DNA of 64,000 nt from Fibrobacteria bacterium. GTDB taxonomy: Bacteria > Fibrobacterota > Fibrobacteria > UBA11236. Each line of letters begins with the position of its first letter. Positions within the stretch are counted from its first letter, which is position 1. Positions 1,740 through 24,735 of this stretch are shown here, in pieces. Where the stretch lies: positions 5,875 to 69,874 of the forward strand of contig DATENA010000338.1 in assembly GCA_035275285.1 (NCBI GenBank), written 5' to 3'. The notes below the pieces were generated by a model. It saw only the letters and a list, made by a program, of their open reading frames with translations, did not search any database and had not been told where the DNA came from. The position numbers were made by a program, and so were the translations under genes.

Positions 1740-3149
1740 TCATATTCCCGCCACCAGCTTCTTGAAGGCTTTTCCCCGTTCCTTGTAGTTTTCGAACATC
1801 CCGAAGGAGGCGCAGGCGGGCGACAGGGCGATGGCGCCCTTCCCAATCTCGGCCATGAGGAATTCCACGGCCGTTTCCAGGCTGGGGCATTGGCGCAAGG
1901 TCCGCGCCCCGGAGGCGTCCGGGAACCCGGCCGAGGCGTCTGCAAAGCCGGCCGAGGCCAGTTCTTCCCGGAGGCGGTCGGCCGTCTGGCCGATCAGGGC
2001 GATGGCCCGCACGTGGCCCGCGGCGGCGATGGCGGAGGCCAGTTCCGAAAAGTCCGCGTGCTTTTCCGACCCCCCCAGGATCAGCCCCAGGGGAGCTTCC
2101 CGCAGGGCCTGCACCGCGCCGAGGGTGGCTTCCGGCCGCGTGGCGTAAGAATCGTTGTAAAAGGATACGCCGTTGCGATCGCGCACGAATTCCAGGCGGT
2201 GTTCCAGGCCGCGGAAGGCCATGGCCGCGGCCACCACGTGCCGGGGCTCGGCTCCCGCTTCCAGGGCCAGGATCCCGGCCGCGGCGATGTTCTCCAGGTT
2301 GAACCGGCCCTTGAGGCGCGTCGCGGCCAGGGGGACGGCGAACTTGAGGCCGGTCCAGCGCGCCTCCTTGTCGTCGATGACCACTTCGCTCGCGGCTCCG
2401 CCGGTTCCGAAGGAGCCGCTGGAGCCGTAGGCGGTTTTGCGGGCGGGGCTCCGGCCGGCTATCCAGGCGCTGCCTTCGGCGTCCGCGCAGTAGGCGAGCG
2501 CGTCCCCGGGCGCTTGGTGCGCGGCCAGGTTGGCCTTGTGCAGCCAGTATTCGTCCCGGGTGGGATGCCAATCGAGGTGTTCGGTGGTGGTGCGCAGGAC
2601 CGCGGCCAGGGCGGGGCTTTGCGCCAGGGTGGAGAGCTGGAAGCTGGACAGCTCCAGGATCAGCTTCCCGCCCGGAGGCAGGGAAGAGGCCAGATCCAGG
2701 GCCGGAACTCCGATGTTACCCCCCAGGCCGGCGGGGATCTCCGCTTCCTCCAGCATGGCGTGGAGCAGGGAGCAGCAAGTGCCTTTGCCGACCGTGCCCG
2801 TAACCCCGATGATGCGTTCGCGCCCGGCCAGGGCGAAAGCCAGTCCCGTTTGCGAAGTGAGAACGCCGCCGTTGCGGATGAACGCGGCGAGGGCGGGGAG
2901 ATCCGGCCGCACGCCCGCGGAACGGAACACGGTGCGCATGCCGGCGAGGCCGGCGAGATAGTCCCCGGAGCCGGGAGCCGCCGCGTACCGCAAGCGCGGG
3001 TCGAGATGCGTAGGCTGCTTGCGATCGAATACGGTGATGTCCGCGAAGCCCCGATCGAGGAGGTAACGGCACGTGCTGGCGCCTTCCACTCCATATCCCA
3101 GCACTCCGATGGGTGGCTCGATTTCCGGTTGCGCCTGTTCCTGGATCAT
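1740..3149 (-). CDS. murD: UDP-N-acetylmuramoylalanine--D-glutamate ligase (MurD-type Mur ligase)
   Basis: N-terminal Rossmann IGVLGYGVEGAS..., P-loop GVTGTVGKGT, Mur ligase middle and C-terminal regions. Start set at the internal Met (MIQEQ) rather than the track's 3260, because the upstream part is low-complexity. Confidence 0.8.
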   Translation of the reverse strand: MIQEQAQPEIEPPIGVLGYGVEGASTCRYLLDRGFADITVFDRKQPTHLDPRLRYAAAPGSGDYLAGLAGMRTVFRSAGVRPDLPALAAFIRNGGVLTSQTGLAFALAGRERIIGVTGTVGKGTCCSLLHAMLEEAEIPAGLGGNIGVPALDLASSLPPGGKLILELSSFQLSTLAQSPALAAVLRTTTEHLDWHPTRDEYWLHKANLAAHQAPGDALAYCADAEGSAWIAGRSPARKTAYGSSGSFGTGGAASEVVIDDKEARWTGLKFAVPLAATRLKGRFNLENIAAAGILALEAGAEPRHVVAAAMAFRGLEHRLEFVRDRNGVSFYNDSYATRPEATLGAVQALREAPLGLILGGSEKHADFSELASAIAAAGHVRAIALIGQTADRLREELASAGFADASAGFPDASGARTLRQCPSLETAVEFLMAEIGKGAIALSPACASFGMFENYKERGKAFKKLVAGI

Positions 3150-3376
3150 CCGTTCCGCCGCCCCTGTCCGGCAAAGGGCGCACCGCGCGCCGTTCGCCGA
3201 GGGAAACCGCTTTCGAGGGCAAAAATAGCAACCCCCGCGGGTTGGAGCCCCAAATCCCAAATTTTATATTCACAATCGTTTTTCGGATACACGATCCGGC
3301 CGCCGGCCGGAGGATCTGCGGACCCGGTGGAGTACGGCGCGCTTTTCAGGCGCGGGTGCCGCCGCCGGGCCGGAGA

Positions 3377-4085
3377 AGGAGAGCCGATGAAAAACGACCT
3401 GATGCTGCTCACCCTGCTGTACGCGGTGGCTTTCACTGCCTTCATAGGCGCCATCAATTCGCGGGGGCCGGCGCGCGTCGCCCTTTCCTACTTCCTGGCC
3501 ATCCTCACGCTCTGCGCGGCGGTTTTCCATACCAGCCAGTTCCTGGCCGGGGACGGGCTGCACGGGGACGATGCCGTGGTGGTCGCGCCGCCTCCGCAGC
3601 CCCTGGCGCCTCCCGAGCCCGTGGCGCCCCCGCCCCCGGACACCGCCGCCCTGGCCGCCTCCCAGAACGAAGCCGCCATCGCCGAAGGCAAGAACGAACT
3701 CAAGGGAGTCCTGGAGGCCGCGCGCCGCGTGGCCCGCAGCATGTCCTCCCTGAGCCTGGGCGCCGTGGCGGACATCTCGGACGAGGAATACGAGTCCCTG
3801 CAGAACCGGGCCGTGGGATACCTGGCCGAGGCCCGCCGCGCCAAGGACCGGCTCGCCGCCGCCGCCTCCAAAATCCCGCCCCAATTGAAGGACCCGCAGG
3901 ATCAATTGGCCAAGGGGCTGGAATCGCTGGTCTCCTCCGCGTACAACGCCGAGCGTTTTTTCAAATCGGAAAACGACACCGAAGAGAAACAGCATGCCGC
4001 GGCCTTCCGCAAGGGCCTGCAGGACGCCAATGCTTCGTTCAAGAAAGCCGGGACCGCGCTCGGTTCCGAGGAAGCCGGGGAATGA
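3377..4085 (+). CDS. hypothetical membrane protein (236 aa) with Pro/Ala-rich linker and coiled-coil-like C-terminus
   Basis: Start at MKNDLMLL. Has 2-3 hydrophobic helices, then a PPPQPLAPPEPVAPPPP linker. The upstream part of the 1638..4085 ORF is antisense to murD and was rejected. Confidence 0.5.
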
Positions 4086-4137: not shown

Positions 4138-4515
4138 ATGATGTCCCTTGTTCCGGATGGTTTGAAGTACACCAAGGATCACGAATGGGCGAAGCTCGAA
4201 GGCGCCGTCGCAACCGTCGGCGTCACCGACCACGCCCAACGGGAGCTCGGTGACATCGTCTTCGTGGAATTGCCCAAGGTCGGCGCGAACGTCCAATCGG
4301 GCAAAAGCTTCGGCACCATCGAAGCGGTGAAGACCGTGGCCGAACTGTACGCTCCGGTAACCGGCACGATCACGGAAGTCAACACCGCCCTTTCGGCCGA
4401 CGCCGGGGTGATCAACCAGGATCCCTACGGGACCGGCTGGATCATCAAGGTGAAGGTGGACAAGCCTACCGAAGAAGGCTTGATGGAGCCGGCGGCCTAT
4501 AAAGCCTTGATCTGA
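4138..4515 (+). CDS. gcvH: glycine cleavage system H protein
   Basis: KYTKDHEWAKLEG...VGVTDHAQ..LGDIVFVELP.VG.....G..FG.IEAVK is the lipoyl-lysine motif of GcvH. Confidence 0.9.
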   Translation: MMSLVPDGLKYTKDHEWAKLEGAVATVGVTDHAQRELGDIVFVELPKVGANVQSGKSFGTIEAVKTVAELYAPVTGTITEVNTALSADAGVINQDPYGTGWIIKVKVDKPTEEGLMEPAAYKALI

Positions 4516-4635: not shown

Positions 4636-7539
<2,904 letters not shown>

Positions 7540-7703: not shown

Positions 7704-8711
7704 ATGGGAATCAAGGTCGCGATAATGGGCGCCACCGGGGCGGTGGGAACGGAACTTTTGGACATCCTCGCCGATCGGAAATTCCCGATTTCCGAGCTGA
7801 GGCTGCTGGCTTCCGCCCGTTCCGCCGGAAAAACCCTGCAATTCCAGGACGAGGATATCAAGGTCCGGGAATTGACCCATGATTCCTTCAAGGGCATCGA
7901 TTTGGTGCTGGCCTCCGCCGGCGGCAAGATCAGCAAGGAATTCGCGCCCTCGGCCGTAAAAGCGGGCGCCGCGGTGGTGGACAACACCTCCCATTTCCGC
8001 ATGACGGAAGGGGTGCCGCTGGTGATCCCGGAGATCAATCCCGAGGACATCTTCAAACACAAGGGCATCATCGCCAATCCCAATTGCTCCACCATCATCA
8101 TGGCCCTGCCCCTGTGGCCGTTGCACAAGCGTTACAAGATCAAGCGCATCGTGGCCGCCACCTACCAGGCCGCCAGCGGCGCCGGCGCCGTGGCCATGGA
8201 CGAACTGGTGAGCGAAACCGCCGCCTACCTCAAGGGGGAGGAGTTCAACCGCACCGTGATCCCCCATCCCTATGCCTTCAATCTCTTCCCCCACAACTCG
8301 CCCATGACCGAGAGCGGGTATTGCGAGGAAGAGATCAAGATGGTCAAGGAAACCCGCAAGATCTTCCACGACGAGGCGATCCGCGTGACCGCGACCTGCG
8401 TGCGCGTGCCCGTGCTGCGCGCCCATTCGGAGGCCCTCAACGTGGAGTTCGAGCAGGAACCGGACCTCGAAGAGGTTTACAAGCTCCTGGCGGCCGCGGA
8501 AGGCGTGGAGGTGATGGAAGACCGCGCCAAGAACCGCTGGCCCATGCCCCTGGACGCCTCCGGCCGTGACCCGGTGCTGGTGGGCCGCGTGCGCAGGGAC
8601 GATACCCAACCCAGGACCCTGGACATCTGGGTGGTGGGGGACCAGATACGGAAGGGGGCGGCGTTGAACGCGGTGCAGATTGCGGAGAAGCTGTTCAAGA
8701 CAGGGAAATAA
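7704..8711 (+). CDS. asd: aspartate-semialdehyde dehydrogenase
   Basis: MGIKVAIMGATGAVG NAD-binding N-terminus, catalytic Cys in NPNCSTI, and Asd dimerisation domain. Start chosen at the internal Met of the 7542 ORF. Confidence 0.9.
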   Translation: MGIKVAIMGATGAVGTELLDILADRKFPISELRLLASARSAGKTLQFQDEDIKVRELTHDSFKGIDLVLASAGGKISKEFAPSAVKAGAAVVDNTSHFRMTEGVPLVIPEINPEDIFKHKGIIANPNCSTIIMALPLWPLHKRYKIKRIVAATYQAASGAGAVAMDELVSETAAYLKGEEFNRTVIPHPYAFNLFPHNSPMTESGYCEEEIKMVKETRKIFHDEAIRVTATCVRVPVLRAHSEALNVEFEQEPDLEEVYKLLAAAEGVEVMEDRAKNRWPMPLDASGRDPVLVGRVRRDDTQPRTLDIWVVGDQIRKGAALNAVQIAEKLFKTGK

Positions 8712-8824
8712 GAAGCGGACGGAGAGACGGCTCCGGAGGCAGACGCCGGAGCACATTTCATGTGCATCCCGTCGGGGGTACAGGCTTATCCCCCGCCGCC
8801 GCGGCTTCGCCCTTCGGAGTCGGG

Positions 8825-8889
8825 GGTCAAGAAAAGAAGAATCCAGCCATTCTTCTTTTCTTAACTCCCGACCCCCGACTCCCTACTCC
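8825..8889. terminator. long imperfect inverted repeat downstream of asd (GAGTCGGGGGTC..AAGAAAAGAAGAAT / ATTCTTCTTTTCTT..GACCCCCGACTC)
   Basis: A 26/33-nt arm pairing with a 6-nt loop, read directly from the sequence. Probable terminator or REP-like hairpin. Confidence 0.4.
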
Positions 8890-8995
8890 CGACGGGACGC
8901 CGCCCCGAGCACCATCACGTCGGATTCCACCCCCCCTTGCCCGATCGCCTCTTAGTCTTATTGCCCCCCGCGTTCCGAAACGCTATACTCCCCCC

Positions 8996-12892: not shown

Positions 12893-14658
12893 CCCATATC
12901 GCTTGCCGCCCCCTCCCGGGTCCAAGGCAAGCGCAGGGTCTGCTCCACCTTGACCCCCTTTTCCGCCCACCATCCGTGCCTTACGTCCAGCCTTAGGTAA
13001 CGCCCGGGTTTCCGCACGTCCCCGGCCAGGATTTCCGCCGCCCAGGCCGCCGTCCCCTTGCGTTCGCAGGTCAGGCTCAGAGGCGCGGGCCGGGATCCGG
13101 AATAGCCCCCGCCCTTCCAGGTGAACGCCGCCTTGGCAAGCCAGGGCCCCGACCGCCGGGTCAGGCTCTGGCCCCAGCCGCCCCATCCCCCGTCTTCGCC
13201 GTCATGCGGCAATCCCATGCTTCCGGGCGGTCCGGGCCGGCGGAAGGCCACCGTGCTCCCGGCCTCGTGGGTCCATTCTTCCAGGGTCTGGATCCACGCC
13301 AGTCCCCCCTCCCCGGCCAGCAATCCCCGGTTCAGGGACCATCCGGCCGCGCCGCTTCCCTGTACGTCCGCGCGAAAACCGGCCAGGGAAACCACGGGCA
13401 GGCGGGAGCGGACCGAAAGGCCGCCTTCCCCGCGGCCAGGCAGGATCCAGCGGCCCTCCAGGGTATCGCGCAGGTAACCCCTGGGGGATTGCAGGGGGTT
13501 GGCCCAGGCCGCGCTGGCCTGCCGGGCCTGCAGCCGCCACCCGCCGGAATCGGGATCCCGGGCGGATAGGAAGGCGTCCAGGTAGGCCCCTACCGCGGCA
13601 TTGCGGGAGGGGGAATGGGTCCAGGATCCGGCCGCGCCCAGCTTCCAGAGGATCCCGTCCTCCCCCCGGCCCTGCAGGCCCGCTCCCGCCACCTTCACTT
13701 CCATAGGGGCGCCGGAGGCGGGCTCGAAGCGCTGGAAGGCCGTCTGCAGGCGGAAATCGGAGCGGCTTCCGCGCCTGGCCAGGCCGGCGGTAAAGAGCGA
13801 GGCATCCCGTCTTTCCCCGGCCGCGGAGCCGCCGCGTTGCAAGCGGTTCCAGGTCCCCGCCGCCTCCAGGGTCCAAGCGCCCGCCCGGCCGCGCAGTCCC
13901 AGGCCGTCCAGGGCGGCTTGCGGGGAAAAGAACGCCCCGTCCGCTCCGGAGGTTCCCGACCACCCGGCGTAGAAACGGTTGCCGGCCACGAAAGCCAGGC
14001 GCGTATCCGTAAGGGAGGCATGGAGGTGCCCCGCATGGACGGAAAACCTGCCGTTGCCCAGGCTCGCATAGCGCAAGTAGGGACGATAGTCCCGCAGGGA
14101 AAGGCGCGCGGCCGCGCCCGGCAGCGAGCCTTCGCCTTGGAACAGGGGCGCCGGCGCGCCGGCGCCGGGATCCTGCCTGGGCCGCACGGATTGGGCGGCC
14201 AGCAAACGGGCCCGGGGAGCCCCCCGGCCCTTTCCGGCGCCGGGTCCGGGCGGCGGAAGGGCGTCAAGAGTATCCTGCAGGTTACCTTGGCTCCCTTCCC
14301 CTCCCCGCCTCCCGCCTCCCTCCGCCCCGGGCGGTTCCGGGCAGGCCTCCGCCAGGGCTTCCCGCACGTCCCGCCAGCGCGGCTCGGCGTCCGGAAAGCC
14401 TGCTTCCCGGAGTTCCGGCAGCTCCCGCCAAGCCTCGCACCCCCCGTCGCCCCCCTCCGCGAGCAGGTCCAGCAAGGCGTCGTAGGCTTCCTGCCCCGCC
14501 AATCCGGAGGATATCCGGTCCCGGAGGATTTCCAGGGCCGCTTCCGCTTCCGGCGAATAGGCCCGCGCGGCCGGGGACAGGAACAGAATCCCCAGGCCCG
14601 AAAGACGGAGAATCAGGCGCAAAACCGGGAGTATTTGAGGTTTGTGGGAATTATTCAA
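12862..14658 (-). CDS. secreted beta-rich protein, probable outer-membrane beta-barrel (about 598 aa)
   Basis: TTG start giving (M)NNSHKPQILPVLRLILRLSGLGILFLSPAARA-YS, a signal peptide with an AxA cleavage site. This is followed by alternating-hydrophobic, Gly/Ala/Ser/Trp-rich strands typical of outer-membrane proteins. The upstream 2 kb of the 12862..16695 track ORF is antisense to the kinase-like gene and was rejected. Confidence 0.5.
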   Translation of the reverse strand: MNNSHKPQILPVLRLILRLSGLGILFLSPAARAYSPEAEAALEILRDRISSGLAGQEAYDALLDLLAEGGDGGCEAWRELPELREAGFPDAEPRWRDVREALAEACPEPPGAEGGGRRGGEGSQGNLQDTLDALPPPGPGAGKGRGAPRARLLAAQSVRPRQDPGAGAPAPLFQGEGSLPGAAARLSLRDYRPYLRYASLGNGRFSVHAGHLHASLTDTRLAFVAGNRFYAGWSGTSGADGAFFSPQAALDGLGLRGRAGAWTLEAAGTWNRLQRGGSAAGERRDASLFTAGLARRGSRSDFRLQTAFQRFEPASGAPMEVKVAGAGLQGRGEDGILWKLGAAGSWTHSPSRNAAVGAYLDAFLSARDPDSGGWRLQARQASAAWANPLQSPRGYLRDTLEGRWILPGRGEGGLSVRSRLPVVSLAGFRADVQGSGAAGWSLNRGLLAGEGGLAWIQTLEEWTHEAGSTVAFRRPGPPGSMGLPHDGEDGGWGGWGQSLTRRSGPWLAKAAFTWKGGGYSGSRPAPLSLTCERKGTAAWAAEILAGDVRKPGRYLRLDVRHGWWAEKGVKVEQTLRLPWTREGAASDMGYQLRLVAAL

Positions 14659-14742
14659 ATCTTGCCGCTTTCGGTATCCAGCCTCTAAGATTGGGAAAGT
14701 TAAGCCCGGCCTTCCGCGCGAACTGGAACGGTTGTCACAGAG

Positions 14743-16053
14743 ATGTCGAAGATCATCCATAGCCTTCGCTTCCAGCTGCCCGCGGTGGTCATGAGCGTGT
14801 TCGTGGGCATCCTGTTCCTGCTGATGTTGTTCTTCCATGAGATGACCATCATCCTGGTCAAGACCCGGCAACTTGCGGAATCGGCCGAAGTCAACGATTA
14901 CGTGGCCAGTTGGCTCACCAACCTCTCCTCCAGCGCCCGCGAACGGACCAAGCTGATGTCCCTGGGGAACGAAAGCTATCTGCGCACCTTCCAGGTCACC
15001 CTGAACGAAGTCAACGATCTCTATCGCGAGATCGAGCGCATAGGCCCGGATTCGGCGGCGATCTCCACCCAGCAATTGCGCGGCCTCCACGACGAGCACC
15101 AGGAATACATGGAACTGCTGGACGGCTTCGCCAAGGAGCAGACCATCCGCATGCTCGCCAACCGCTCCCGGGCCGCGGCCGCGCGGGTGCATTCCCAGGC
15201 CCCCAGGCAGATCCCCAGGCAGATCGATTCCAGGAAGCGGACCGCCCGGACGCCGGGCAAGCGCGCCGCGACCGGCGGCAGGAAGGCCGGCCGGCAACCC
15301 GGCAAATCCGCCGCCATCGCTTCCAAATCCGGGAAGCGGAAAGCCCCCCTGCCCGCGCCGGCTTCGCCGGAAGCGATGAAGCAGATAGAACTGGATTCCT
15401 CCACCAACGAAACCTTCAAGGCCTATGAGCAGACCCTGCGGGAAGGCCTGTACATGGCGCAGGAAACCATGCGCGCGGAACGCAAGGACAAGCTCAACAG
15501 CCTGCGGAACTCCGTGGGCCGCGCCAAGGACCGCCTCATCTATTCCCTGCTGCTGCTGCTCGCCATGGTGGGCTACGTGGCCGTCATCCTGAAATGGAAG
15601 ATCCTCGATCCCATGAAGAGCCTGAAGCAGGGGGCCATGGAGATCGGCAAAGGTTCCCTGGGCTACCAGGTGAACGTCGCCTCCCGCAACGAAATCGGCG
15701 AACTGGCGGACGTGTTCAACCGCATGTCCGTGCAGCTGGACCAGAAGCGCAACGCGGAAATGCGCCTTAAGCGCCTGGAAGCCATCGAACAGATAGTGCG
15801 CAGCGTGAACCATGAGATCAACAATCCCCTGATGATCATCAGCGGCAATGCCGAGTACATGCTGGCCATCATGGAAGGCGCGGACGAGAGCCTCAAGGCC
15901 AAGCTGAACGCCATCGTCTCCGAAGTGCGCCGGATCTTCATGGTGACCCAGCGTCTCAAGGAGATCAAGGAACCGGTGACCGAGGATTACATAGGCACCC
16001 AGGACCAGATGATCGATCTGCTCCGGTCCAGCCAGATCCACTTGAGGGACTGA
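14743..16053 (+). CDS. membrane HAMP + HisKA (DHp) protein lacking an HATPase_c domain (truncated histidine-kinase-like)
   Basis: N-terminal TM, a highly basic K/R-rich segment, a second TM, a HAMP-like region (..NEIGELADVFNRM..), and an H-box (RSVNHEINNPLMIISGNAEYM). Only about 85 aa follow the H-box and no N/G1/G2 boxes are seen. Confidence 0.7.
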   Translation: MSKIIHSLRFQLPAVVMSVFVGILFLLMLFFHEMTIILVKTRQLAESAEVNDYVASWLTNLSSSARERTKLMSLGNESYLRTFQVTLNEVNDLYREIERIGPDSAAISTQQLRGLHDEHQEYMELLDGFAKEQTIRMLANRSRAAAARVHSQAPRQIPRQIDSRKRTARTPGKRAATGGRKAGRQPGKSAAIASKSGKRKAPLPAPASPEAMKQIELDSSTNETFKAYEQTLREGLYMAQETMRAERKDKLNSLRNSVGRAKDRLIYSLLLLLAMVGYVAVILKWKILDPMKSLKQGAMEIGKGSLGYQVNVASRNEIGELADVFNRMSVQLDQKRNAEMRLKRLEAIEQIVRSVNHEINNPLMIISGNAEYMLAIMEGADESLKAKLNAIVSEVRRIFMVTQRLKEIKEPVTEDYIGTQDQMIDLLRSSQIHLRD

Positions 16054-16646
16054 TGACGGCCCGACTGATGACGGCCCCTTTCCGCCCTCGTCTTGCCCGG
16101 CTTCCGCGTCTTTCCCGCCTCGGCGCCCTGCTGTCCGCCGCGCTCCTGGCCGCCTGTGCGCCCACCCGGCAACCGACCGTGGCGGAAGAATCGGTCCGGA
16201 CCCCCATGGACAAGGTCCTGGCGCGCCTGGTCTCCAGAGGGGAACTGGACAAGGCCATGCGGACGGCCGACAGCCTGAGCGCGTCCCGGGAGTCCTCGGA
16301 CCGCGAGATAGCCGCCTACTGGAAGATGGTGGCCTGGCTGTACCGCGACGAACCCGATTCGGCCCTGGTCGTCCTGGAAGCGGGCCAAGGCAAATGGACC
16401 GGCGGCTTGCGCAAGGTGCACGCCTCGCTCTTCCTGGGGATGGCCCGCGAAGCCAACCGGAACCGCATGGCCGCGCGCGCGCGCCACGATGAATCGGCTC
16501 CCTGCGCGCCCGCCGACAAGTCCGTCCAGGACAGGTTGGAGTCCCTCCAGAAGGAAACCGGGGACCTGCGCGCGGAGAATGCGCGCCTGGAAACCGAAAA
16601 GGAAAAGTACCAGAAGCTTTTGAAGGACCTGGAAACCATCCGCTGA
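16053..16646 (+). CDS. lipoprotein with C-terminal coiled coil (197 aa)
   Basis: Lipobox LLAAC|A. C-terminal heptad-like LESLQKETGDLRAENARLETEKEKYQKLLKDLE. The start overlaps the upstream stop (TGATG). Confidence 0.55.
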   Translation: MTARLMTAPFRPRLARLPRLSRLGALLSAALLAACAPTRQPTVAEESVRTPMDKVLARLVSRGELDKAMRTADSLSASRESSDREIAAYWKMVAWLYRDEPDSALVVLEAGQGKWTGGLRKVHASLFLGMAREANRNRMAARARHDESAPCAPADKSVQDRLESLQKETGDLRAENARLETEKEKYQKLLKDLETIR

Positions 16647-16660
16647 GGCCGTTTGGATAG

Positions 16661-16782
16661 AAGTCAAAGTGCAAAAGGCAAAAGGCAAAGTGCAAAATGG
16701 AAGAAGTGGGGAACCTCCCCTAGAAGGCGCGGGACCGAGTCCTGATTTTGCACTTTGCATTTTGAACTTTGACTTTTGAACT
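16661..16782. repeat. composite palindromic intergenic element, copy 1 (arms built of AAGTCAAAGTGCAAAAGGCAAA subrepeats)
   Basis: Left arm 16661-16701 (AAGTCAAAGTGCAAAAGGCAAAAGGCAAAGTGCAAAATGG) is the near reverse-complement of right arm 16745-16782 (GATTTTGCACTTTGCATTTTGAACTTTGACTTTTGAAC). A second copy lies at 19971..20116. Confidence 0.7.
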
Positions 16783-17960
16783 CTCTCTCTCTTTTGAAAT
16801 CCCCCCGCGGTCTACCTACCTTTCCCCCCGTGGACGACATACGCAAAGACCTGTTCCAATCCCTGCACCGCCTGGTCATCAAGGTGGGCACCAAGATCCT
16901 CGTGGGCGAGGACAACGCGCCTTCCTGGGACCAGCTCAACCATCTGGTGGCGCAGCTTTCCCTGCTGCATGACGAGGGCTACGCGGTGGTGCTGGTCACC
17001 TCCGGCGCCGTGGGCGTGGGGATGAGCACCCTCGGCTATGCAACCCGCCCCAAGGAGCTTCCGGAGAAGCAGGCCTGCGCGGCCATCGGCCAGATCCGCC
17101 TGATGCACATGTACTCGGAATCCTTCGCCAAACGCGGCAAGACCGTGGCGCAGATCCTCCTTTCCGGGGACGATTTCCGGGACCGCGCCCGCTTCAACAA
17201 CATCCGCAAGACGGTGGGCACCCTGTTGGAGAAGCGCGTCATCCCCATCATCAACGAGAACGACACCATCACCACCGAAGAGATCAAGGTCGGGGACAAC
17301 GACAAGCTGAGCGCCGATGTGGCCCATTTCCTGGAGGCGGACCTGCTGGTCATCCTCTCGGACGAGGACGGCCTGTTCACCAAGAACCCCAAATCCCATC
17401 CGGACGCGGAGGCCATTTCCGTGGTGCCGCGCATCACGCCGGACATCCTCAAGCTGGCGGAAGAGAAGCCGGGCTCCAAGGTGAGCGTGGGCGGGATGAA
17501 GGCGAAGCTGCTGGCCATCCGCCAGGCGACGGAAGCCGGCACCCCGGCGGTGCTGACCCGCGGGCATGGGGCGCGCCTGCTGGACCTGGTCAAGGGCAAA
17601 CCCCTGGGCACCCTGTTCCTGCCCAACCCGGACAAGATAGGGCGCAACAAGCGCTGGCTGGCCTTCGTGTCCAAGGCGCGCGGCCAGCTCTTCCTGGACG
17701 AAGGCGGCGTGAAGGCGATGCGCACGCGCAAGTCCAGCCTCTTGCCCGCGGGCATCCGCGACAGCAAGGGGACGTTCAAGTCCGGGGATTTCGTGGAAGT
17801 GTGCAGCCTGGAAGGCGACGTGATCGGCCGGGGCCGTTCGGCCTATTCGGCGGCGGAGGTCCAGCTGATCCGGGGGCACAAGAGCAACCGCATCCCGGAA
17901 CTCCTCAACCGCAAGGGACCGGACGAGGTGATCCACCGGGATCAATTGGTCATTTTCTAA
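16776..17960 (+). CDS. proB: glutamate 5-kinase with C-terminal PUA domain
   Basis: ..VIKVGT..L, AVVLVTSGAVG, IINENDT, and PUA C-terminus. The track start is a TTG inside the repeat element; a GTG at 16830 (VDDIRK) is an alternative. The start is uncertain. Confidence 0.85.
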   Translation: MNSLSLLKSPRGLPTFPPVDDIRKDLFQSLHRLVIKVGTKILVGEDNAPSWDQLNHLVAQLSLLHDEGYAVVLVTSGAVGVGMSTLGYATRPKELPEKQACAAIGQIRLMHMYSESFAKRGKTVAQILLSGDDFRDRARFNNIRKTVGTLLEKRVIPIINENDTITTEEIKVGDNDKLSADVAHFLEADLLVILSDEDGLFTKNPKSHPDAEAISVVPRITPDILKLAEEKPGSKVSVGGMKAKLLAIRQATEAGTPAVLTRGHGARLLDLVKGKPLGTLFLPNPDKIGRNKRWLAFVSKARGQLFLDEGGVKAMRTRKSSLLPAGIRDSKGTFKSGDFVEVCSLEGDVIGRGRSAYSAAEVQLIRGHKSNRIPELLNRKGPDEVIHRDQLVIF

Positions 17961-17984
17961 GGCCGTCCGCGCCCGGCCGGGCCT

Positions 17985-18161
17985 TCAGATGATGGAGCGC
18001 CGGCGGCGGCCGAAAATGTCCATCGGCCCCCGGTTGCGCAGGAGATCGTGGCGGGAGCCCCAGCCTCCGGCATTGCGCCTCAGGGCGAATCCGCGGTTCC
18101 GGCGGTTGAGCATCTTGAAGGCCGTTCCCGCCAGCAGCAGCATGAATATGCGTTTGATCAT
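17985..18161 (-). CDS. small hypothetical protein (58 aa), hydrophobic N-terminus and Arg-rich C-terminus
   Basis: ATG preceded by GGGAGGGA Shine-Dalgarno at -6. MIKRIFMLLLAGTAFKMLNRRNRGFALRRNAGGWGSRHDLLRNRGPMDIFGRRRRSII. It lies in the 366-bp gap between proB and proA, on the opposite strand. Confidence 0.4.
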   Translation of the reverse strand: MIKRIFMLLLAGTAFKMLNRRNRGFALRRNAGGWGSRHDLLRNRGPMDIFGRRRRSII

Positions 18162-18326
18162 GGATCCCTCCCGGTAACCGTCCATTCTTCCAAAATAAAT
18201 TCGCTTGGGAGCGGTTGATACGCCGGCGGCCGGGTCCGGAGCCGCCCGGTGCGGGTACGTGGCCGGCGCGCGCGTCCCCCCGCACGCTTTGCGGCCGCGC
18301 CATTCCTGTATACATTTACCAGAAGT

Positions 18327-19586
18327 ATGGACGATATCACCTCTTACGCCCGGGTTCTGGGCGAAAACGCCCGGGAAGCCTCCCGGCAATTGCGGGCCCT
18401 GCCCCGCGCCAAACGCGACGGCGCCCTCAAGGCGCTGGCCAAATCCCTGATCGCCTCCCAGGCGGAAATCCTGGCCGAGAACGACAAGGACATGGAGGAA
18501 AGCAAGGAGCGGGGGCTGAGTCCCTCCATGCTCGACCGCCTGCTGCTGACGCCCGCCCGCATCCAGGGCATCGTCGAAAGCGTGGACTCGATCGCCGCCT
18601 TCCCCGATCCCCTCGGCAAGTCCCTCGGCAGCCGCAAGCGCAAGGACGGCCTCAAGATCGCCCGGGTCACGGTCCCCATCGGCACCATCCTGTTCATCTT
18701 CGAATCGCGCCCCAACGTGACCATCGACGGCGGCGCCCTCTGCCTCAAGAGCGGCAACGCCGTGATCCTGCGCGGCGGCAAGGAAGCGGCCCGCACCAAC
18801 GCCGTCTTCGCCCGCCTGTTCCAGGCGGCCCTCAAGTCCAAGGGCATCGACGAGCGCGCGGTGCAATTGGTGAACAAGCCCGATCACGGCCTGGTGGATC
18901 TGCTGCTCACGGACGTCAAGCACGTGGACCTGGTGATCCCCCGCGGCGGCGAGCGGCTGATCCATTCCGTGGTGGAGAAGGCCCGCATCCCGGTCATCAA
19001 GCATTACAAGGGCGTCTGCCACACCTACGTGGACAAGACCGCGGACCTCAAGGCCGCGGAGCGCATCGTCGTGAACGCCAAGGCCCAGCGCCCCAGCGCG
19101 TGCAACGCCATGGAGACCCTGCTCATCGACGGGCACATCAAGCCCGCCGCGGTCAAGCGCATCCTGGACAGCCTGGTGGAGCATAACGTGGAATTGCGCG
19201 GGGACGAGTTCATCCGCAACCTGCATCCCAGCGTCAAGCCCGCCGTGGAAGCGGATTGGGGCGAGGAGTTCTCCGATCTGAGGCTGGCCGTGAAGATGGT
19301 GGACGGCGTGGATGAGGCGGTGGAGCACATCAACAAATACGGCACCGGGCACACGGACGCCGTGCTGGCCAAATCGCCCAAGGTGCAGAAGGCCTTCCTG
19401 GCGGGCGTGGACAGCGCCTCCCTGATGGTGAACGCTTCCACCCGGTTCGCCGACGGCGGGGAATACGGCCTGGGGGCGGAAGTGGGCATCAGCACGGACA
19501 AGCTGCACGCGCGCGGGCCCATGGGCCTGGACAGCCTCACCACCTACCGCTGGATCGTGGAAGGGACGGGACATGTCCGCAAATGA
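18327..19586 (+). CDS. proA: gamma-glutamyl phosphate reductase
   Basis: Aldehyde dehydrogenase-superfamily ProA motifs (..FESRPNVT.D...LKSGNA.ILRGG.EA..., catalytic Cys in ..[12 protein letters not shown]). Start at MDDITSY. Confidence 0.9.
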
Positions 19587-19968
19587 CGCCATCGAACCCC
19601 TGCTGGGCCAGGTCAGGTTCGGCGCGGACGGCCTGGTCACCGCCGTGGCCGTCGACGAGGGCGACGGGCAGGTGCTCATGCTGGCCCACATGAACCGGGA
19701 ATCCCTGGGGCTGACCCTCGCCACCGGCTACATGACCTACTGGTCCCGCTCCCGGAAAAAGCTCTGGCTCAAAGGCGAGACGTCCGGCAACCGCCAACGG
19801 GTGGTGAGCGCCAGCCTGGACTGCGACGGCGACGCGCTGCTGTTCCGGGTGAAGCCGGAAGGCAACGGCGCCGCCTGCCACGAGGGGTACCGCAGTTGTT
19901 TCTTCCGCCTGCGCAAGGACGGGGAATGGGAGATCCAGGGGAAGCCGGTTGGGCGGTCTTCCGGGTAG
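19573..19968 (+). CDS. hisI: phosphoribosyl-AMP cyclohydrolase (monofunctional HisI)
   Basis: ...[13 protein letters not shown]...G...YWSRSR.KLW.KGETSGN.Q.V.....DCDGDALL..V...G.ACH.G..SCF. It overlaps the proA 3' end by 14 nt. Confidence 0.85.
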
Positions 19969-19970
19969 AA

Positions 19971-20116
19971 GGCAAAAGTCAAAGTGCAGAAGTCAAAGTT
20001 CAAAATTTGAATACGGGAAACCTTTCCAGAAGTCTTTCCAGGCTCATGGAACCCCGGCTTAGGCGATGAGTCTCTTCAATTTTGCACTTTGCATTTTGAC
20101 TTTTGCACTTTGAACT
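19971..20116. repeat. composite palindromic intergenic element, copy 2
   Basis: Left arm 19971-20011 (GGCAAAAGTCAAAGTGCAGAAGTCAAAGTTCAAAATTTGAA) pairs with right arm 20078-20116 (CAATTTTGCACTTTGCATTTTGACTTTTGCACTTTGAAC). It starts 3 nt after the hisI stop and ends 6 nt before the tilS ATG. Confidence 0.7.
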
Positions 20117-20121
20117 CTCCC

Positions 20122-21666
20122 ATGGCTGACACCACCGAACAGGCCCTAGACCTCTGGGACCAAACAACCCGGTCCTTCCTCGCCTCCCAAGGCTGGCATC
20201 CCGCCGGCTCCTCCCTTCTCCTGGCCGTATCCGGCGGGGCCGATTCCGTGGCCTTGCTGCATTGGGCGCGCCGGACCGTCTCCCGCCGGGGCGGCCGCCT
20301 CGCCGTGGCCCACGTCAACCACGGTCTGCGCCCCGCGGCCGCCGCGGAGCGGGACTTCGTCTCCGCGCTGTGCCGCGATCTGGGCATCCCCTGCCATCTG
20401 CGCGACCTGGATCCGGGCCGCCGCCCGGCGCGCGAATCCGTGGAAATGTGGGCGCGGCGCGAGCGCTACGGTTTTTTCGCCGCGGCGGCCCGGCTTGCCG
20501 GGGCCGACTGGATCCTGACCGCCCATCACCGTGACGACCTGGTCGAGACCGTGTTCCAGCGCCTGGGGCGGGGGACCGGCCCGCGCGGCCTCCGGGGCAT
20601 CCCTTTCCGGCGAGCGGGCATCGTCCGGCCTTTGTTGAGCCGCAGCCGGGCCGAAATCCTGGCTTACCTCGGTTTGTGCGGCGCGTCATGGCGCGAGGAC
20701 GAATCCAACGCCGACGTGCGCCTCGATCGGAACTGGTACCGGCACCGCTACCTGCCCTCCCTCCGGCGCGGGGATCCGGGACTGGACGCGCGCGTCTTCG
20801 CCCTGGCCATGCAAGTGCAATCGCTCGGGAAGGGTGTCGACGCCCTGGAGGAGGAGGCCGCCCTGCTCCGGGCCGACGGCGAAGGGATGCCGTATCTGGA
20901 CCGCGCAGGCATCGCCGAACGGGTGGCGGAGGAAGATCTGGAATCCCTGGGCTTCTGGATGCGCAGGTTGACGCGGGCCGCGGCTCCCGGACTGGGCCGG
21001 CAAGCGGCCGCCCGCCCACTACCGGTTACAAAAGAGATACTCTTGGAGTTTTGCCGCCAATGGAAATCGGAATCCGGGCCCGGACGCTTGCAGGTGCCTT
21101 TGAACGCCGCGATCGCGCTGAAATGCCGAAATGGGGGTGTTTACTGCGCGTTTTCATCCCCGGGCGCTTCCGCGGAACGGCGGGCGGCAAAAAAAAGCTG
21201 CTCCCTGCGGGCCCAAAGGGTTATACTGATCGAAGGCTTTTGCGAGGTTTCCTGGCGTTGGGGAGATCTCGCCTACACACTGGCGGCGCGCCGGTTTCCC
21301 AGGCCGGAAAACCTGGAATATCCCGCGTCGGGGGAGGAAAGGGCGATCTTTGATGCAGACCTCTTTTCGTGTACATTACTTATACGAACTCGGAAGGACG
21401 GCGATCGCTTTTCCCCTTTGGGGGTACAAAGCCGTTCGCGCAAATTGAAAACTTTTTTCAACGAGGAGAAGGTTCCGATCGGCAAGAGGGAAATGCTCCC
21501 CATCGTCTTCGCAAGCGGGCCGCCTTTGGACGGCTCGCCCGCGGATGAAGCATCGGGCGGTGGAAGCGCCGCCTGGGTGCCCGGTCTAGGAATATCCGAT
21601 TTCTTCAAGGTCAGCGGATCGACTTCTCACATCCTTGAGTTGGTGCTTAAATGCGAGAACCCCTAG
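20122..21666 (+). CDS. tilS: tRNA(Ile)-lysidine synthetase
   Basis: PP-loop [18 protein letters not shown], and TilS C-terminal domain. Start at MADTTEQ; the track's 20089 start lies inside the repeat. Confidence 0.85.
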
Positions 21667-23861
21667 AAGACAAAAAGAACAACCTCGTGGAAGACAAGAA
21701 GAACGCCCCGGTCAACCGGAAGCTGCCTGAGTCCAAGCAGGCCATGCCTCCGGGCAACAAGTGGAAGCGGAAGAATCTTTCCCTGATCCTGGCGATGGTG
21801 CTCGTCTCCATTTTCCTGGTGCAGCTCCTGGACTCCCAGAACCCGGTGGAGGAAAAGACCTACTCCGAGTTCCGGAACATCATCGCGGACACCAGCCTGG
21901 CCATCACCTCCATCGAACTGCAGCGGATAGGCGAAGGCTACATATTGGTGGGCGAGCGCAAGCTGACCCCGGACGAACAGGCCAAGCGCAAAGAGACCCA
22001 CAGCGCCTTCTCCTCGCGCACGGTGAAGTTCAAGACCCTGCTCCCGGACATCGACGGGCCCATCCAGCAATTGCTCGACAACCTCATGGCCCGCGGCGTG
22101 AAGGTGGAGTTCGTGAAGGAAACGCGCTGGCTCAGCTACCTGAGCACGCTGTTCCCGTTGTTCCTGTTGATCGGCTTCTTCTGGTTCATGATGGCGCGCC
22201 AGGGCGGCGGCATGGGCGGCACCCGGGGGATTTTCTCCTTCGGAAAGATCAAGGGCAAGCTGATGGACGAGAACCGGCCCAAGATCACCTTCCGCGACGT
22301 GGCCGGCGCGGACGAAGCCAAACAGGAACTCGAGGAAATCATCGCCTTCCTGAAGGACCCCAGCAAGTTCAGCAAGCTGGGCGGGCGCATCCCCAAGGGC
22401 GTGCTGCTGCTGGGCCCTCCGGGCACCGGCAAGACCCTGCTCGCCAAGGCCGTGGCCGGCGAGGCGGAAGTCCCCTTTTTCAGCATGTCGGGATCGGATT
22501 TCGTGGAAATGTTCGTGGGCGTGGGCGCCTCGCGCGTGCGCGACCTGTTCGAACAGGGCAAGAAGAACGCCCCCTGCATCATCTTCATCGATGAGATCGA
22601 CGCGGTCGGGCGCCATCGCGGCGCCGGCCTGGGCGGCGGGCACGATGAACGCGAGCAGACCCTGAACCAGCTCCTGGTGGAGATGGACGGGTTCAACAGC
22701 AACGACGGCGTGATCCTCATCGCCGCCACCAACCGTCCCGACGTGCTGGATCCCGCCCTGCTGCGCCCCGGGCGTTTCGACCGCCAGGTGGTGGTGGACC
22801 TGCCCGATTCCCGCGGCCGCGAAGGCATCCTGCGCGTGCACCTGGAAAAGCGCAAGGTCCCCGTCCGCGACGACGTGGACGTGGCCAAGATCGCCAAGGG
22901 AACGCCCGGGCTTTCCGGCGCGGACCTGGAGAACCTGGTCAACGAGGCCTGCCTGCTGGCGGCCCGCTTCGGCGGCAACCAGGTGGCCATGATCGATTTC
23001 GAAGAGGCCAAGGACAAGATCATGATCGGGTCCGAGCGCTTCTCCCGCATCCTGACGGAAGAGGAGAAGAAGACCACGGCCTACCACGAGGCGGGCCATG
23101 CGGTGGTCTCCCTGCTGGTCAAGTACTCGGATCCGCTGCACAAGGTGACCATCATCCCGCGCGGCCGCGCCCTGGGCATCACCTTCCAGCTCCCGGAGAA
23201 GGACAATTACACCGTGGATTCGCGCTTCGTCCTGGACAAAATAGCCATCCTCATGGGCGGCCGCGGCGCCGAGCTCCTGCTCTTCGGGCAGAAGAACACG
23301 GGCGCGTCCAACGATATCGAGAAGGCCACGGAGCTGGCCCGCAAGTACGTCTGCGAATGGGGCATGTCCGACCTGGGACCGCTCTCGTACGGCAAAAAGC
23401 AGGAGGAGATCTTCCTGGGCCGCGAAATCAGCCAGCACCGCGATTATTCGGAGGCCACCGCCATCCAGATCGACCGCGAAGTGCGCAAGATCGTGGACGG
23501 CCAGATGGAGCGCGTGACCAACCTGCTCTCCGAGAACAAGCAGAAGCTCGTCAACCTGGCGGAGGCCTTGCTGGTGCACGAAGTGCTCGAGGCCGATGAA
23601 ATTATCAAGGCCATGACAGGCGAACTGCTGACCGATACCCGCAAGAGCCGCTCCTATCTCAAGGGCCGCCCGGACCGCCGCTCCCGCGCCGGAACCGACT
23701 CCGCCGCCGGCATCGCCGAGGGTGAAATCACCGTGGCGGGCCTCTCGGCCGACAAAGCCGAGGACGAAGGCAAGCCCGGGGTGGAGGATGGCGACAAGGG
23801 CGGCGAAGGCGGCAGGGGTAACGTCGCCGGCAGAGGTAACCGTTTCGACGCCACCGTCTGA
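21651..23861 (+). CDS. ftsH: ATP-dependent zinc metalloprotease FtsH
   Basis: N-terminal TM pair, AAA+ Walker [18 protein letters not shown] zinc site, and a Gly/Glu-rich C-terminal tail. It overlaps tilS by 16 nt. Confidence 0.9.
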
Positions 23862-23862
23862 C

Positions 23863-24735
23863 GTGGCCTCCTGGGGCCATCCCCTGAAATCCGTCCGGCC
23901 GCGCCCCTGGCGGGCGGGCGACCGCGTCCTGGGCGGGGACCGTCCCCTGATCATGGGTATCCTCAACGTGACCCCGGATTCCTTCCACGACGGCGGGCTC
24001 CACTCCACGGCGGACCAGGCCTTGCGCCATGCCGAGGCCATGCTGGAAGCCGGCGCGGACATCCTCGACGTGGGCGGGGAATCCTCCCGGCCCGGGGCGG
24101 AACCGGTCCCGGAGGCCGAGGAGCTGGCCCGCACCCTGCCCTCGGTGCGCGGGATCGTGAAACGCTTCGATTGCCCCGTCTCCATCGACACCGTGAAGGC
24201 CAACGTGGCCCGCGCGGCCCTGGCGGAAGGCGCCTGCATCGTCAACGATATCAGCGCCATGACCTTCGACCCGATGATGCTGGAGGTCCCCCTGGGCTTC
24301 CGCGCCGGCGTGGTGCTGAACCATATCAAGGGCACGCCCAAGGACATGCAGCAGGCCCCCGCCTACGCGGACGTGTCCGCCGAGGTGGCGGAATTCCTGA
24401 AAGGCCGCATCCAAGTACTGGCGGCCATGGGGGTGGCCAAGGACCGCATCGCCGTGGACCCGGGCATCGGCTTCGGGAAGCGTTTGGAGGACAATTACGG
24501 CTTGATCGGCCGCATGGAGGATCTGGACGCCCTCGGCTGCCCGATCCTCCTGGGAATGTCCCGCAAATCCTTCATCGGCAAGACCGCGGGCCTGGAACAC
24601 TCGGATCGCCTCTTCCCCAGCGTGGCCCTGGCGGTGCTGGCGGCCCTCAAGGGCGCATCCATCCTGCGCGTCCACGACGTGCGGGAAACCCGCGAAGCCC
24701 TGGCCATGGTGGCCGCCGTGCGCGCCGCGCTTTGA
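23863..24735 (+). CDS. folP: dihydropteroate synthase
   Basis: IMGILNVTPDSFHDGG.., DVGGESSRPGA, GFGK. Start is uncertain: a GTG 2 nt after the ftsH stop is proposed, and an ATG at 23788 inside ftsH is the alternative. Confidence 0.8.
   Translation: MASWGHPLKSVRPRPWRAGDRVLGGDRPLIMGILNVTPDSFHDGGLHSTADQALRHAEAMLEAGADILDVGGESSRPGAEPVPEAEELARTLPSVRGIVKRFDCPVSIDTVKANVARAALAEGACIVNDISAMTFDPMMLEVPLGFRAGVVLNHIKGTPKDMQQAPAYADVSAEVAEFLKGRIQVLAAMGVAKDRIAVDPGIGFGKRLEDNYGLIGRMEDLDALGCPILLGMSRKSFIGKTAGLEHSDRLFPSVALAVLAALKGASILRVHDVRETREALAMVAAVRAAL

Follow-up and report, generated by a model that had tools for sequence, protein, structure and literature searches.

The 64,000-nt window analysed here (contig DATENA010000338.1 of a Fibrobacteria bacterium) contains two copies of an imperfect palindrome, in which five tandem A-rich heptanucleotide units (heptads) face five T-rich ones across a G+C-rich core. 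The second copy, at 19963-20121, reaches from the stop codon of hisI to the ATG of tilS and occupies exactly the 153-nt spacer between the two genes; the first is located upstream of proB. The element is real, old and under selection: the same junctions are occupied in relatives whose synonymous sites are saturated, seven other Fibrobacteria assemblies having it between hisI and tilS, and the arms, which do not covary, are better conserved than coding DNA around a randomised core. This combination is a clear signature of selection acting on the arrays. Our preferred reading, to which a probability of about 0.4 is assigned, is that of a co-transcribed intercistronic element, whose U-rich array would be the leader of tilS, a gene devoid of a Shine-Dalgarno (SD) sequence, and whose A-rich array would mask that leader. 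The element joins a known, widespread and functionally unexplained class of paired inverted heptanucleotide arrays.

Copy 2 is composed, in order, of GGGTAGAA, five NNCAAAR heptads, a G+C-rich core of ~60 nt, five YTTTGNN heptads and CTCTCCC (Table 1). The hisI stop codon TAG sits inside the left terminus, the left arm, GGCAAAAGTCAAAGTGCAGAAGTCAAAGTTCAAAA, starts at 19971, and the right end ...CTTTGAACTCTCCC is reached at 20121. Copy 1 follows the same plan at 16655-16787, between a 197-aa open reading frame (ORF) and proB. The two arms of each copy are built from one heptad family and lie on opposite strands (called as inverted repeats I4 and I11); both copies are intergenic and close to the end of the upstream ORF, with all flanking genes on the + strand. 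A shared 19-mer, TTTGCACTTTGCATTTTGA, gives six matches in the window with up to 3 mismatches, all within the two copies, for a chance expectation of 0.01. Tandem Repeats Finder (TRF) called a period of 7 in 4/4 arms, with 4.4-5.1 copies, corresponding to five units per arm in a unit-by-unit parse. The two arrays are 48 nt apart in copy 1 and 74 nt apart in copy 2; the cores that they enclose (41-59 nt) are unrelated and contain no ORF. The arms stand out as A+T-rich islands, with ~43-49% G+C amid DNA of ~65-70% G+C.

The sequence, the shared 19-mer and the TRF calls bear out the first-pass annotation of this region as a second copy of one element type, exactly filling the hisI-tilS spacer. 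Its limits, given there as 19971-20116, were rightly positioned and too narrow, since the GGRTAGAA-type and CTCTCCC termini, which are counted here within the element because they recur in copy 1 and in orthologues, extend it on both sides. Both copies had also been described as ending immediately upstream of a gene, which does not hold for copy 1, whose last base is 16787, the proB GTG being at 16830. A hint of oriented insertion had been seen in the common CTCTC end; this end is mirrored on the left by GGRTAGAA and is thus simply the outer end of the inverted repeat and, since the order A-arm then T-arm is identical on both strands, the arms give no orientation.

As a separate observation, the A-arm of copy 1 (16659-16704) and the T-arm of copy 2 (20073-20118) match at 41/47 Watson-Crick positions (89% in the inverted-repeat call), while complementarity between the arms of the same copy is much lower (30-31 of 42-47); the outer arms of the two copies thereby bracket proB-proA-hisI as a giant inverted repeat. 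This cross-complementarity may have arisen by gene conversion, may reflect long-range pairing or, as the heptad alphabet is small, may be fortuitous.

Orthologous loci of relatives were gathered by means of their TilS homologues; the locus itself is also present in the ENA assembly ERZ27257057. At the hisI|tilS junction a full element, with the same termini and five heptads per arm, was found in L129, L205, L206, L207, L208 and L122, and a degenerate one in L123. In L209 only the final ~15 nt of the core and the T-arm are present, so that this locus is a deletion derivative which lost the A-arm, the T-arm being still conserved. The most distant relatives, L125-L128, have no heptads at this junction, and their spacer measures 33 nt (L125) or roughly 50 nt (L126-L128). 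The first-pass annotation had pointed to the possibility that relatives carry the same stretch as an ordinary untranslated region free of repeats; this was looked at, and the conserved spacer of the relatives does carry the repeats.

Upstream of proB, a full copy is found in the window, a short copy in L123 and a lone T-arm in L209. An opposite-strand 173-aa gene comes between the A-arm (5445-5472) and the T-arm (6126-6174) of L206, an arrangement which suggests that DNA can become inserted between the arms. The product of this gene contains CHB_HEX_C_1 / Fn3_assoc domains, and a related gene is found at the same site, where the arms are absent, in L207 and L122. In L205 (6790-6980) and L208 (5800-5905) the site of copy 1 is taken instead by a palindrome whose units are G-rich, GGGGTTAGGGGCTAGGGTAA ... 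TTACCCTAGCCCC; which heptad-type element occupies the proB-upstream junction therefore depends on the lineage.

TilS identity among these genomes is 56-73%, and identity at four-fold degenerate sites is 42-63%, which means that synonymous sites are saturated. Occupation of the same junctions in relatives so far diverged argues for vertical inheritance and against recent insertion, oriented or otherwise. No additional copies were detected in ~150 kb of the relatives' flanks, and the 64-kb window has the two described. The best explanation is that the element entered the hisI|tilS and proB-upstream junctions in the ancestor of one Fibrobacteria subclade and then descended vertically.

Conservation is concentrated in the arrays. 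The 50 nt preceding the tilS ATG are 96% identical between L206 and L209, 94% in the L206-L207 and L207-L209 comparisons, and 88% between the window and L129, compared with 71-78% for the first 300 nt of tilS in the same pairs; the cores of orthologous spacers cannot be aligned. Both arms count five units at either locus and in all full-element orthologues aligned, unlike what is expected of a slipping microsatellite.

The stem formed by the arms does not share this conservation. The predicted RNA fold of copy 2 has an energy of -57.2 kcal/mol (z = -3.7), and z is -1.8 for copy 1. The palindromic arms of the first-pass annotation are confirmed as an inverted repeat; they are more specific than the generic arms described there, each consisting of exactly five tandem heptads, and as an RNA hairpin they are only moderately above shuffled sequences. 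Covariation was evaluated on an alignment of eight arm pairs, in the best register, by shuffling the 3' partners among sequences 500 times. Pairing cells amounted to 75.2%, against 76.1% after shuffling, 422/500 shuffles being at least as high; no arm covariation was found in this set (score 0.126, against 0.140 for shuffled pairs), and two-sided pair changes were 5, against 8.8 expected. Within a heptad, the two variable positions mostly have no partner, and arms taken from different orthologues pair as well as arms of the same one. What is kept is therefore the heptad array and not the stem; pairing is a by-product of inverted arrays sharing a CAAAR/YTTTG core. The + and - strands do not differ consistently in fold energy, and G.U pairs in the arms (28) are not decisively commoner than A.C (21), so that nothing marks RNA over DNA as the selected molecule.

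The position of the T-arm relative to tilS is equally constant. The last TTTG lies 8 nt from the tilS ATG (9 nt in the window) in 9/9 assemblies with the T-arm, and no SD sequence was found before tilS in these nine assemblies, the bases before the ATG being CTCC-like; SD sequences do occur on other genes of the window, such as AGGAGG before the gene at 4138. The overlaps of proA with hisI and of tilS with ftsH indicate that coupling is usual in this cluster.

The window was searched for known features that might account for the element. Searched against Rfam, the whole window had no match at gathering score, and 16500-20300 had none at E <= 1; a scan for tRNA and tmRNA genes was negative. No sigma-70-type promoter (-35/-10, 16-18 nt spacing) was detected in 14000-24500 by a tool whose scope leaves out phylum-specific promoter types, and none of the seven intrinsic terminators called in the same interval falls in either copy; a near miss in copy 1 consists of GGGAC-CGA-GTCC followed by TGATTTTG. 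Bacteroidetes-type TTTG/TAnnTTTG and sigma-32-type promoters, considered by eye, were dropped, as the TA of TAnnTTTG is absent and spacings do not fit; the literature on Fibrobacter promoter motifs yielded nothing informative. Of the promoter or ribosome-loading function proposed in the first-pass annotation, the sigma-70 promoter thus finds no support, whereas ribosome loading is plausible for the T-rich half. This half looks functional for the downstream gene because it is retained alone in L209, at both loci, and in L206, at proB; in addition, it is conserved better than coding DNA and lies at a fixed distance from an ATG which has no SD sequence.

These data are combined in the reading that we prefer. 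The element would be transcribed within a proB-proA-hisI-tilS-ftsH messenger, where the A-rich array, starting from the hisI stop, would fold back on the U-rich array ending at the tilS start, to form a long hairpin with periodic mismatches. The U-rich array (YUUUG every 7 nt) would act as the leader of tilS in place of an SD sequence, the A-rich array would mask it, and translation of tilS-ftsH would depend on the opening of the hairpin. This might be performed by the ribosome terminating at the hisI stop, in a coupling by unmasking, or by a single-strand-binding OB-fold protein of the cold-shock-domain or S1 type, covering 7 nt per monomer. The placement from stop to start, the constant distance between T-arm and ATG, the lack of an SD sequence, the overlapping junctions of the neighbouring genes and the lone T-arm variants are in favour of this mechanism, as is the tendency of A-arrays, in the cross-phylum loci described below, to follow closely on the end of a long ORF. 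The sequences show the anatomy and age of the element, the selective conservation of its arms and the lack of covariation, of SD sequence, promoter and terminator and of a known RNA family; co-transcription, folding in vivo, the identity of any binding protein and the regulatory outcome are inferred. A candidate reader is suggested by the Bacillus subtilis cold-shock protein CspB, which binds one heptanucleotide, with consensus GTCTTTG/T and C favoured at position 3, GCACTT being a bright array spot (PMC1904285). With the preference taken as pyrimidine-rich, with C at position 3, T at 2, 4 and 6 and G/T at 7, agreement with this consensus at positions 3-7 is seen for CACTTTG, CATTTTG and ACTTTTG, the units of the T-arm.

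Several points weigh against this mechanism. Co-transcription and folding are assumed, and the sense strand has neither a consistent advantage in fold energy nor a clear excess of G.U over A.C. Copy 1 is placed more loosely, with 8 nt between it and the preceding stop and 42 nt between it and the GTG of proB. In the cross-phylum loci described below, which were selected by pattern, start codons are not enriched just after T-arrays, so that the leader function may be confined to this lineage. Elsewhere the sequences of heptad arrays can be quite different (GGGAATC, TAACTGA, ACTGGTC and others), and a T-rich-specific cold-shock protein cannot therefore explain the whole class; the match to CspB is itself a resemblance in sequence to the target of one Bacillus protein.

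A scan for four consecutive YTTTGMM units, using one genome per species, identified at least 119 loci; among the matches listed are cyanobacteria, Acidobacteriota, Planctomycetota, Verrucomicrobiota, Bacteroidota, Clostridia, Gammaproteobacteria, lineages of the candidate phyla radiation and others, none of those listed being from Fibrobacteria. Many of the listed loci share the same plan of A-rich array, variable core of 0-576 nt and T-rich array. With a relaxed arm detector, the A-then-T order was found 37 times and the reverse 3 times (binomial p ~2e-8 by our own estimate), and flanking genes, where callable, were co-directional in 15 cases, convergent in 2 and divergent in 0. A long ORF ends at most 10 nt before the array for 14% of A-arrays, 4% in the T orientation and 1.5% of random positions. 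As these loci were chosen by pattern and gene calls were crude, all these figures are indicative only.

In four of these loci with longer-cored elements (L027, L050, L088 and L099) an ORF of the PF05635 family (23S_rRNA_IVP, an Avd-like four-helix bundle; hereafter IVP) is contained between the arms, with Pfam E values from 6e-19 to 2e-29. A profile search raised the number to six IVP ORFs in the 835 kb of pattern-selected loci, compared with 0 in 638 kb of controls: the ORF of L078 is flanked by inverted heptads of different sequence, and that of L109 is followed by a T-array. An independent sample of ten plasmid IVP genes from different phyla (L210-L219) gave the same picture, 9/10 having period-7 arrays on both flanks above the 95th percentile of controls. 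The heptad flanking IVP genes is lineage-specific (AGTGATT, ACTGGTC, AATCCCC/AATCGTA, CTCTCCG, ATTTTAG and others). In a Gammaproteobacteria metagenome-assembled genome (L088), the IVP-carrying element at 1315-1751 and a gene-less one at 5526-5645, 4 kb apart, share 54/60 nt over the T-arm and inner flank, together with the first 24 nt of the A-arm, and look like an autonomous full-length element and its miniature. The literature search made on this point turned up no report that connects IVP genes with heptad arms.

Plasmid IVP genes (L210, L214-L219) are wedged within functional units, such as hsdS|hsdR, RND adaptor|permease, helicase|N-6 methylase, cas2|cas1 (antisense in L217) and a DUF1156 protein | a Swt1-HEPN protein, which is the behaviour of an element inserting between the genes of an operon.

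The IVP data suggest that the Fibrobacteria element originated as a gene-less derivative of IVP cassettes, although such an origin does not alone explain the conservation of its arms. A broader reading, which we regard as unlikely, is that heptad palindromes of different bacterial phyla are one class of intergenic cassettes whose full-length members carry an IVP gene, that the IVP/Avd-like protein would read the 4-5 heptads of each arm, and that gene-less miniatures, the window element among them, would have been domesticated by their hosts as control elements inside operons. Avd, the homologue of the IVP protein in diversity-generating retroelements, is a pentamer. Were this reading true, the decades-old puzzle of bacterial heptamer repeats, such as those of the cyanobacteria, and the function of the IVP family would become linked.

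A purely selfish counterpart can also be conceived, in which the element is a gene-less miniature of a mobile cassette with an IVP gene between its heptad arms, has no host function, and uses the arms for its own maintenance. In its favour are the six IVP ORFs of the pattern-selected loci, each beside an array (five of them two-sided), the period-7 flanks of the plasmid genes, the pair of elements in L088 and, in L050 (Ca. Stahlbacteria), an IVP gene enclosed by arms nearly like those of the window. Features of the MITE type (miniature inverted-repeat transposable element) were accordingly looked for. Terminal inverted repeats as in MITEs are present (GGRTAGAA plus five heptads against five heptads plus YTCTCC), but no direct repeat resembling a target-site duplication is recognisable by eye at either copy, the empty-site loci L125-L128 being too diverged to place the insertion point. 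Dispersal as for MITEs is not seen either, the two copies in 64 kb having unrelated cores and the same two sites being kept in deeply diverged relatives, with no further copies in ~210 kb. No autonomous transposase-encoding relative was encountered: the full-length relatives found, none of which is in the window, carry an IVP gene and no known transposase, and IVP proteins are not known transposases. With the hmmsearch profile, neither the window nor the Fibrobacteria loci, the relatives' flanks included, gave an IVP gene. Furthermore the T-arm is 96% identical even where the A-arm is missing, a conservation which a selfish palindrome would not need. This reading, which we deem unlikely, may well be right on the origin of the element yet wrong on its present function.

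Alternatively, and with a similarly low likelihood, the arms could be DNA operators, i.e. arrays of sites for a double-strand-binding regulator or nucleoid protein reading T-rich heptads, which bracket the regulatory regions of tilS-ftsH and proB. Such a role would agree with the conservation of the motif array and not of its pairing, with the lack of strand bias and with the A+T-richness of the arms amid G+C-rich DNA. It also has precedents, as the TTTTGAT heptads of the Vibrio cholerae ctxAB promoter are reported to recruit transcriptional regulators (10.1101/2021.05.14.444153), and the heptanucleotide pairs of Geobacter have been annotated as putative global regulator sites (PMC2700814). 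On the other hand, no sigma-70 promoter was found in or near the element, and a T-arm ending 7 nt before the ATG leaves no place for a promoter and a leader, unless the mRNA is leaderless; the start at a stop codon, enriched across phyla, has no obvious reason for a DNA site, and two sites in 64 kb plus ~150 kb of relatives' flanks would make a small regulon at most.

It is distinctly improbable that the palindrome is a bidirectional 3'-end element, such as a terminator, an attenuator or a stabiliser of the repetitive extragenic palindrome (REP) type, presenting an A-rich tract, G+C hairpins in the core and a U-rich tract from either side. The cross-phylum sample is compatible with it in the prevalence of the A-then-T order, in the absence of divergent gene pairs and in A-arrays beginning right after stop codons; copy 1 contains GGGAC-CGA-GTCC followed by TGATTTTGCACTTTG, and Xanthomonas arrays likewise lie close to where the upstream ORF ends and are seldom flanked by divergent genes (PMC4692102). 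Nevertheless the terminator scan was negative for both copies, the genes downstream, tilS and ftsH, are essential and a promoter would not fit between them and the element, and the lone T-arm of L209 cannot form a hairpin; compensatory changes normally accompany the drift of terminator stems, but in the element primary sequence is kept and covariation is absent.

That the arms are a neutral by-product of replication slippage and template switching, inverted heptad microsatellites with no function, is already disfavoured and barely credible: slippage has been proposed for heptanucleotides, the most over-represented long simple sequence repeats in many bacteria (Mrazek 2007, as cited in PMC4679880; PMC4692102), but here five non-identical units are fixed in both arms, at both loci and in every aligned full-element orthologue, with arms above coding-sequence conservation and a randomised core.

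Short tandemly repeated repetitive (STRR) sequences is the historical name of the cyanobacterial repeats of this kind. Heptamer repeats have been noticed repeatedly (cyanobacterial STRR, Xanthomonas, Geobacter, Beggiatoaceae) and have no accepted function; literature searches with the exact heptad dimers gave unrelated matches only. In most genomes surveyed by Mrazek et al. 2007, as cited in PMC4679880, heptanucleotides are the most abundant long simple repeats. Xanthomonas genomes contain ~185 GGGAATC arrays, of which 70-75 per genome as convergent pairs, with function unknown (Rehm et al. 2015, PMC4692102); most often the arrays have four units, and most repeat sequences are transcribed. Like them, the window element has tandem heptads in convergent pairs and is intergenic, near the end of the upstream ORF and between co-directional genes, a context which is the most frequent one in Xanthomonas, where a divergent one is rare. 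Xanthomonas units are, however, G-rich and quadruplex-forming, while those of the window are A/T-rich; copies are hundreds per genome there and two in 64 kb here, and length and sequence, which vary there between close species, are here conserved, as number and sequence of units, across deep divergence. In Geobacter metallireducens, multicopy elements consist of tandem heptanucleotides, four or five at a time, and are 'mostly found in pairs' (Aklujkar et al. 2009, PMC2700814); 4-5 heptads in opposite-strand pairs are thus a trait in common with the window element. Their annotation was that of putative binding sites for global regulators or of regulatory RNA elements. On the basis of their description they differ in the heptads (GGACCGG, MTYCTGA), in the dozens of copies and in some being intragenic.

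T-rich heptads, the same or similar, are found within ~100 nt of start codons in cyanobacteria and Beggiatoaceae. In Nostoc (TTTTGAA)3 is present upstream of recF and near ~20 other genes (10.1101/2022.06.06.494920), and in Beggiatoaceae TAACTGA arrays are located just upstream of start codons without ribosome-binding sites, with S1, Csp or CsrA as proposed readers (PMC4679880). Unlike the window element, these are mostly single direct arrays and not five-plus-five inverted pairs with fixed termini, and they are not known to be conserved at orthologous sites. The V. cholerae ctxAB promoter similarly has tandem T-rich heptads upstream of a gene (TTTTGAT, compared with TTTTGAC/TTTTGAA here); it differs in having a single direct array upstream of a mapped promoter, variable copy number and no inverted partner (10.1101/2021.05.14.444153).

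With REP/BIME, ERIC, Correia, RUP and MITE sequences the element shares the aspect of an imperfect intergenic palindrome of 100-160 bp; it differs in its tandem-heptad arms, in a site that is stable over long evolutionary time, and in having no recognisable target-site duplication, no high-copy dispersal and no cognate transposase or RAYT gene seen. Those families are often co-transcribed with their neighbours and can affect their mRNA stability, termination and translation. The intervening sequences of 23S rRNA are comparable as inverted repeats around an optional IVP gene, the whole unit lying inside a transcribed region, and differ in that the window element has no IVP gene and belongs to a spacer of mRNA instead of rRNA. 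RNase III excises the stems of such sequences from rRNA.

With respect to earlier surveys, what is new is a five-plus-five palindrome held at the same two junctions across synonymous-saturated relatives. An essential downstream gene and natural half-element variants make it a clean system for testing heptad readers, and three observations, namely the A-then-T order (37:3), the placement after stop codons and the recurrent IVP genes between arms, lend themselves to testable hypotheses.

Table 1. Coordinates of the element copies, of the neighbouring genes and of the IVP ORFs. Positions are those of the window or, for IVP ORFs, of the locus indicated.
Feature	Position	Strand	Remarks
Copy 1, left terminus GGATAGAA	16655-16662	strandless	8 nt past TGA stop (16644-16646) of the 197-aa ORF
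Copy 1, A-rich arm GTCAAAG TGCAAAA GGCAAAA GGCAAAG TGCAAAA + degenerate TGGAAGA	16663-16704	strandless	
Copy 1, core	16705-16745	strandless	two small G+C hairpins, GGGGAACCTCCCC and GGGACCGAGTCC
Copy 1, T-rich arm TTTTGCA CTTTGCA TTTTGAA CTTTGAC TTTTGAA + terminus CTCTCTC	16746-16787	strandless	
proB, glutamate 5-kinase	16830-17960	+	GTG start; NCBIfam TIGR01027, E 2e-122; gene call in L001
proA	18327-19586	+	NCBIfam; overlaps hisI
hisI, phosphoribosyl-AMP cyclohydrolase (PRA-CH)	19573-19968	+	NCBIfam NF000768, E 5e-44; stop TAG 19966-19968
Copy 2, left terminus GGGTAGAA	19963-19970	strandless	holds the hisI stop; consensus GGRTAGAA in copy 1 and orthologues
Copy 2, A-rich arm GGCAAAA GTCAAAG TGCAGAA GTCAAAG TTCAAAA	19971-20005	strandless	sequence, TRF
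Copy 2, degenerate sixth unit TTTGAAT	20006-20012		after the A-rich arm
Copy 2, G+C-rich core	20013-20071	strandless	unconserved between copies and between orthologues
Copy 2, inner flank of T-arm CTCTTCAA	20072-20079	strandless	orthologue consensus GTCTTCAA
Copy 2, T-rich arm TTTTGCA CTTTGCA TTTTGAC TTTTGCA CTTTGAA	20080-20114	strandless	sequence, TRF
Copy 2, right terminus CTCTCCC	20115-20121	strandless	adjoins the tilS ATG
tilS, tRNA lysidine synthetase	20122-21666	+	NCBIfam TIGR02432/TIGR02433; M1 invariant in 15 homologues
ftsH	21651-23861	+	NCBIfam; 16-nt overlap with tilS
IVP ORF, L027	113-639		
IVP ORF, L050	2377-2815		
IVP ORF, L088	1315-1751		
IVP ORF, L099	5485-5906		
IVP ORF, L078	6560-7000		
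IVP ORF, L109	600-1125		

The proB-proA spacer (17961-18326 of the window, 366 nt) is a variable spot among relatives. When it was compared in L122, L123, L206, L207 and L208, small opposite-strand ORFs of 49-208 aa, with no Pfam match, were found in four relatives, and the spacer of L123 contains an inserted 3keto-disac_hyd gene.

A third palindrome of the window, at 8818-8893, is made of another heptad type and is located in the spacer behind a gene whose end is at 8711. A 14-bp stem without mismatches, AAGAAAAGAAGAAT / ATTCTTCTTTTCTT, again A-rich first, is nested in CGGAGTCGGGGGTC ... ACTCCCG ACCCCCG ACTCCCT ACTCCCG (TRF period 7, 4.3 copies).

In L112 (Ca. Brocadiia, 2039-3504) the same T-arm is repeated three times within 1.5 kb, with a conserved inner flank CCGCCGTTCATTTTTCATTTTCCACTTTGCACTTTGCACTTTGCAC, and in L109 (Acidobacteriota, 2300-2800) tandem units of ~105 nt contain an A-arm each and are closed by one T-arm; in some genomes, therefore, the arms belong to dispersed or amplified families. 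Inverted layers of different heptads, nested like those of an onion, were seen in Aerosakkonema (L012 3845-5011, L018 3122-3200) and in L118 (2690-3200) and L037 (4835-5100), an example being GTCAAAA inside CCTCCCT inside CTAGCCC/CGACGCC.

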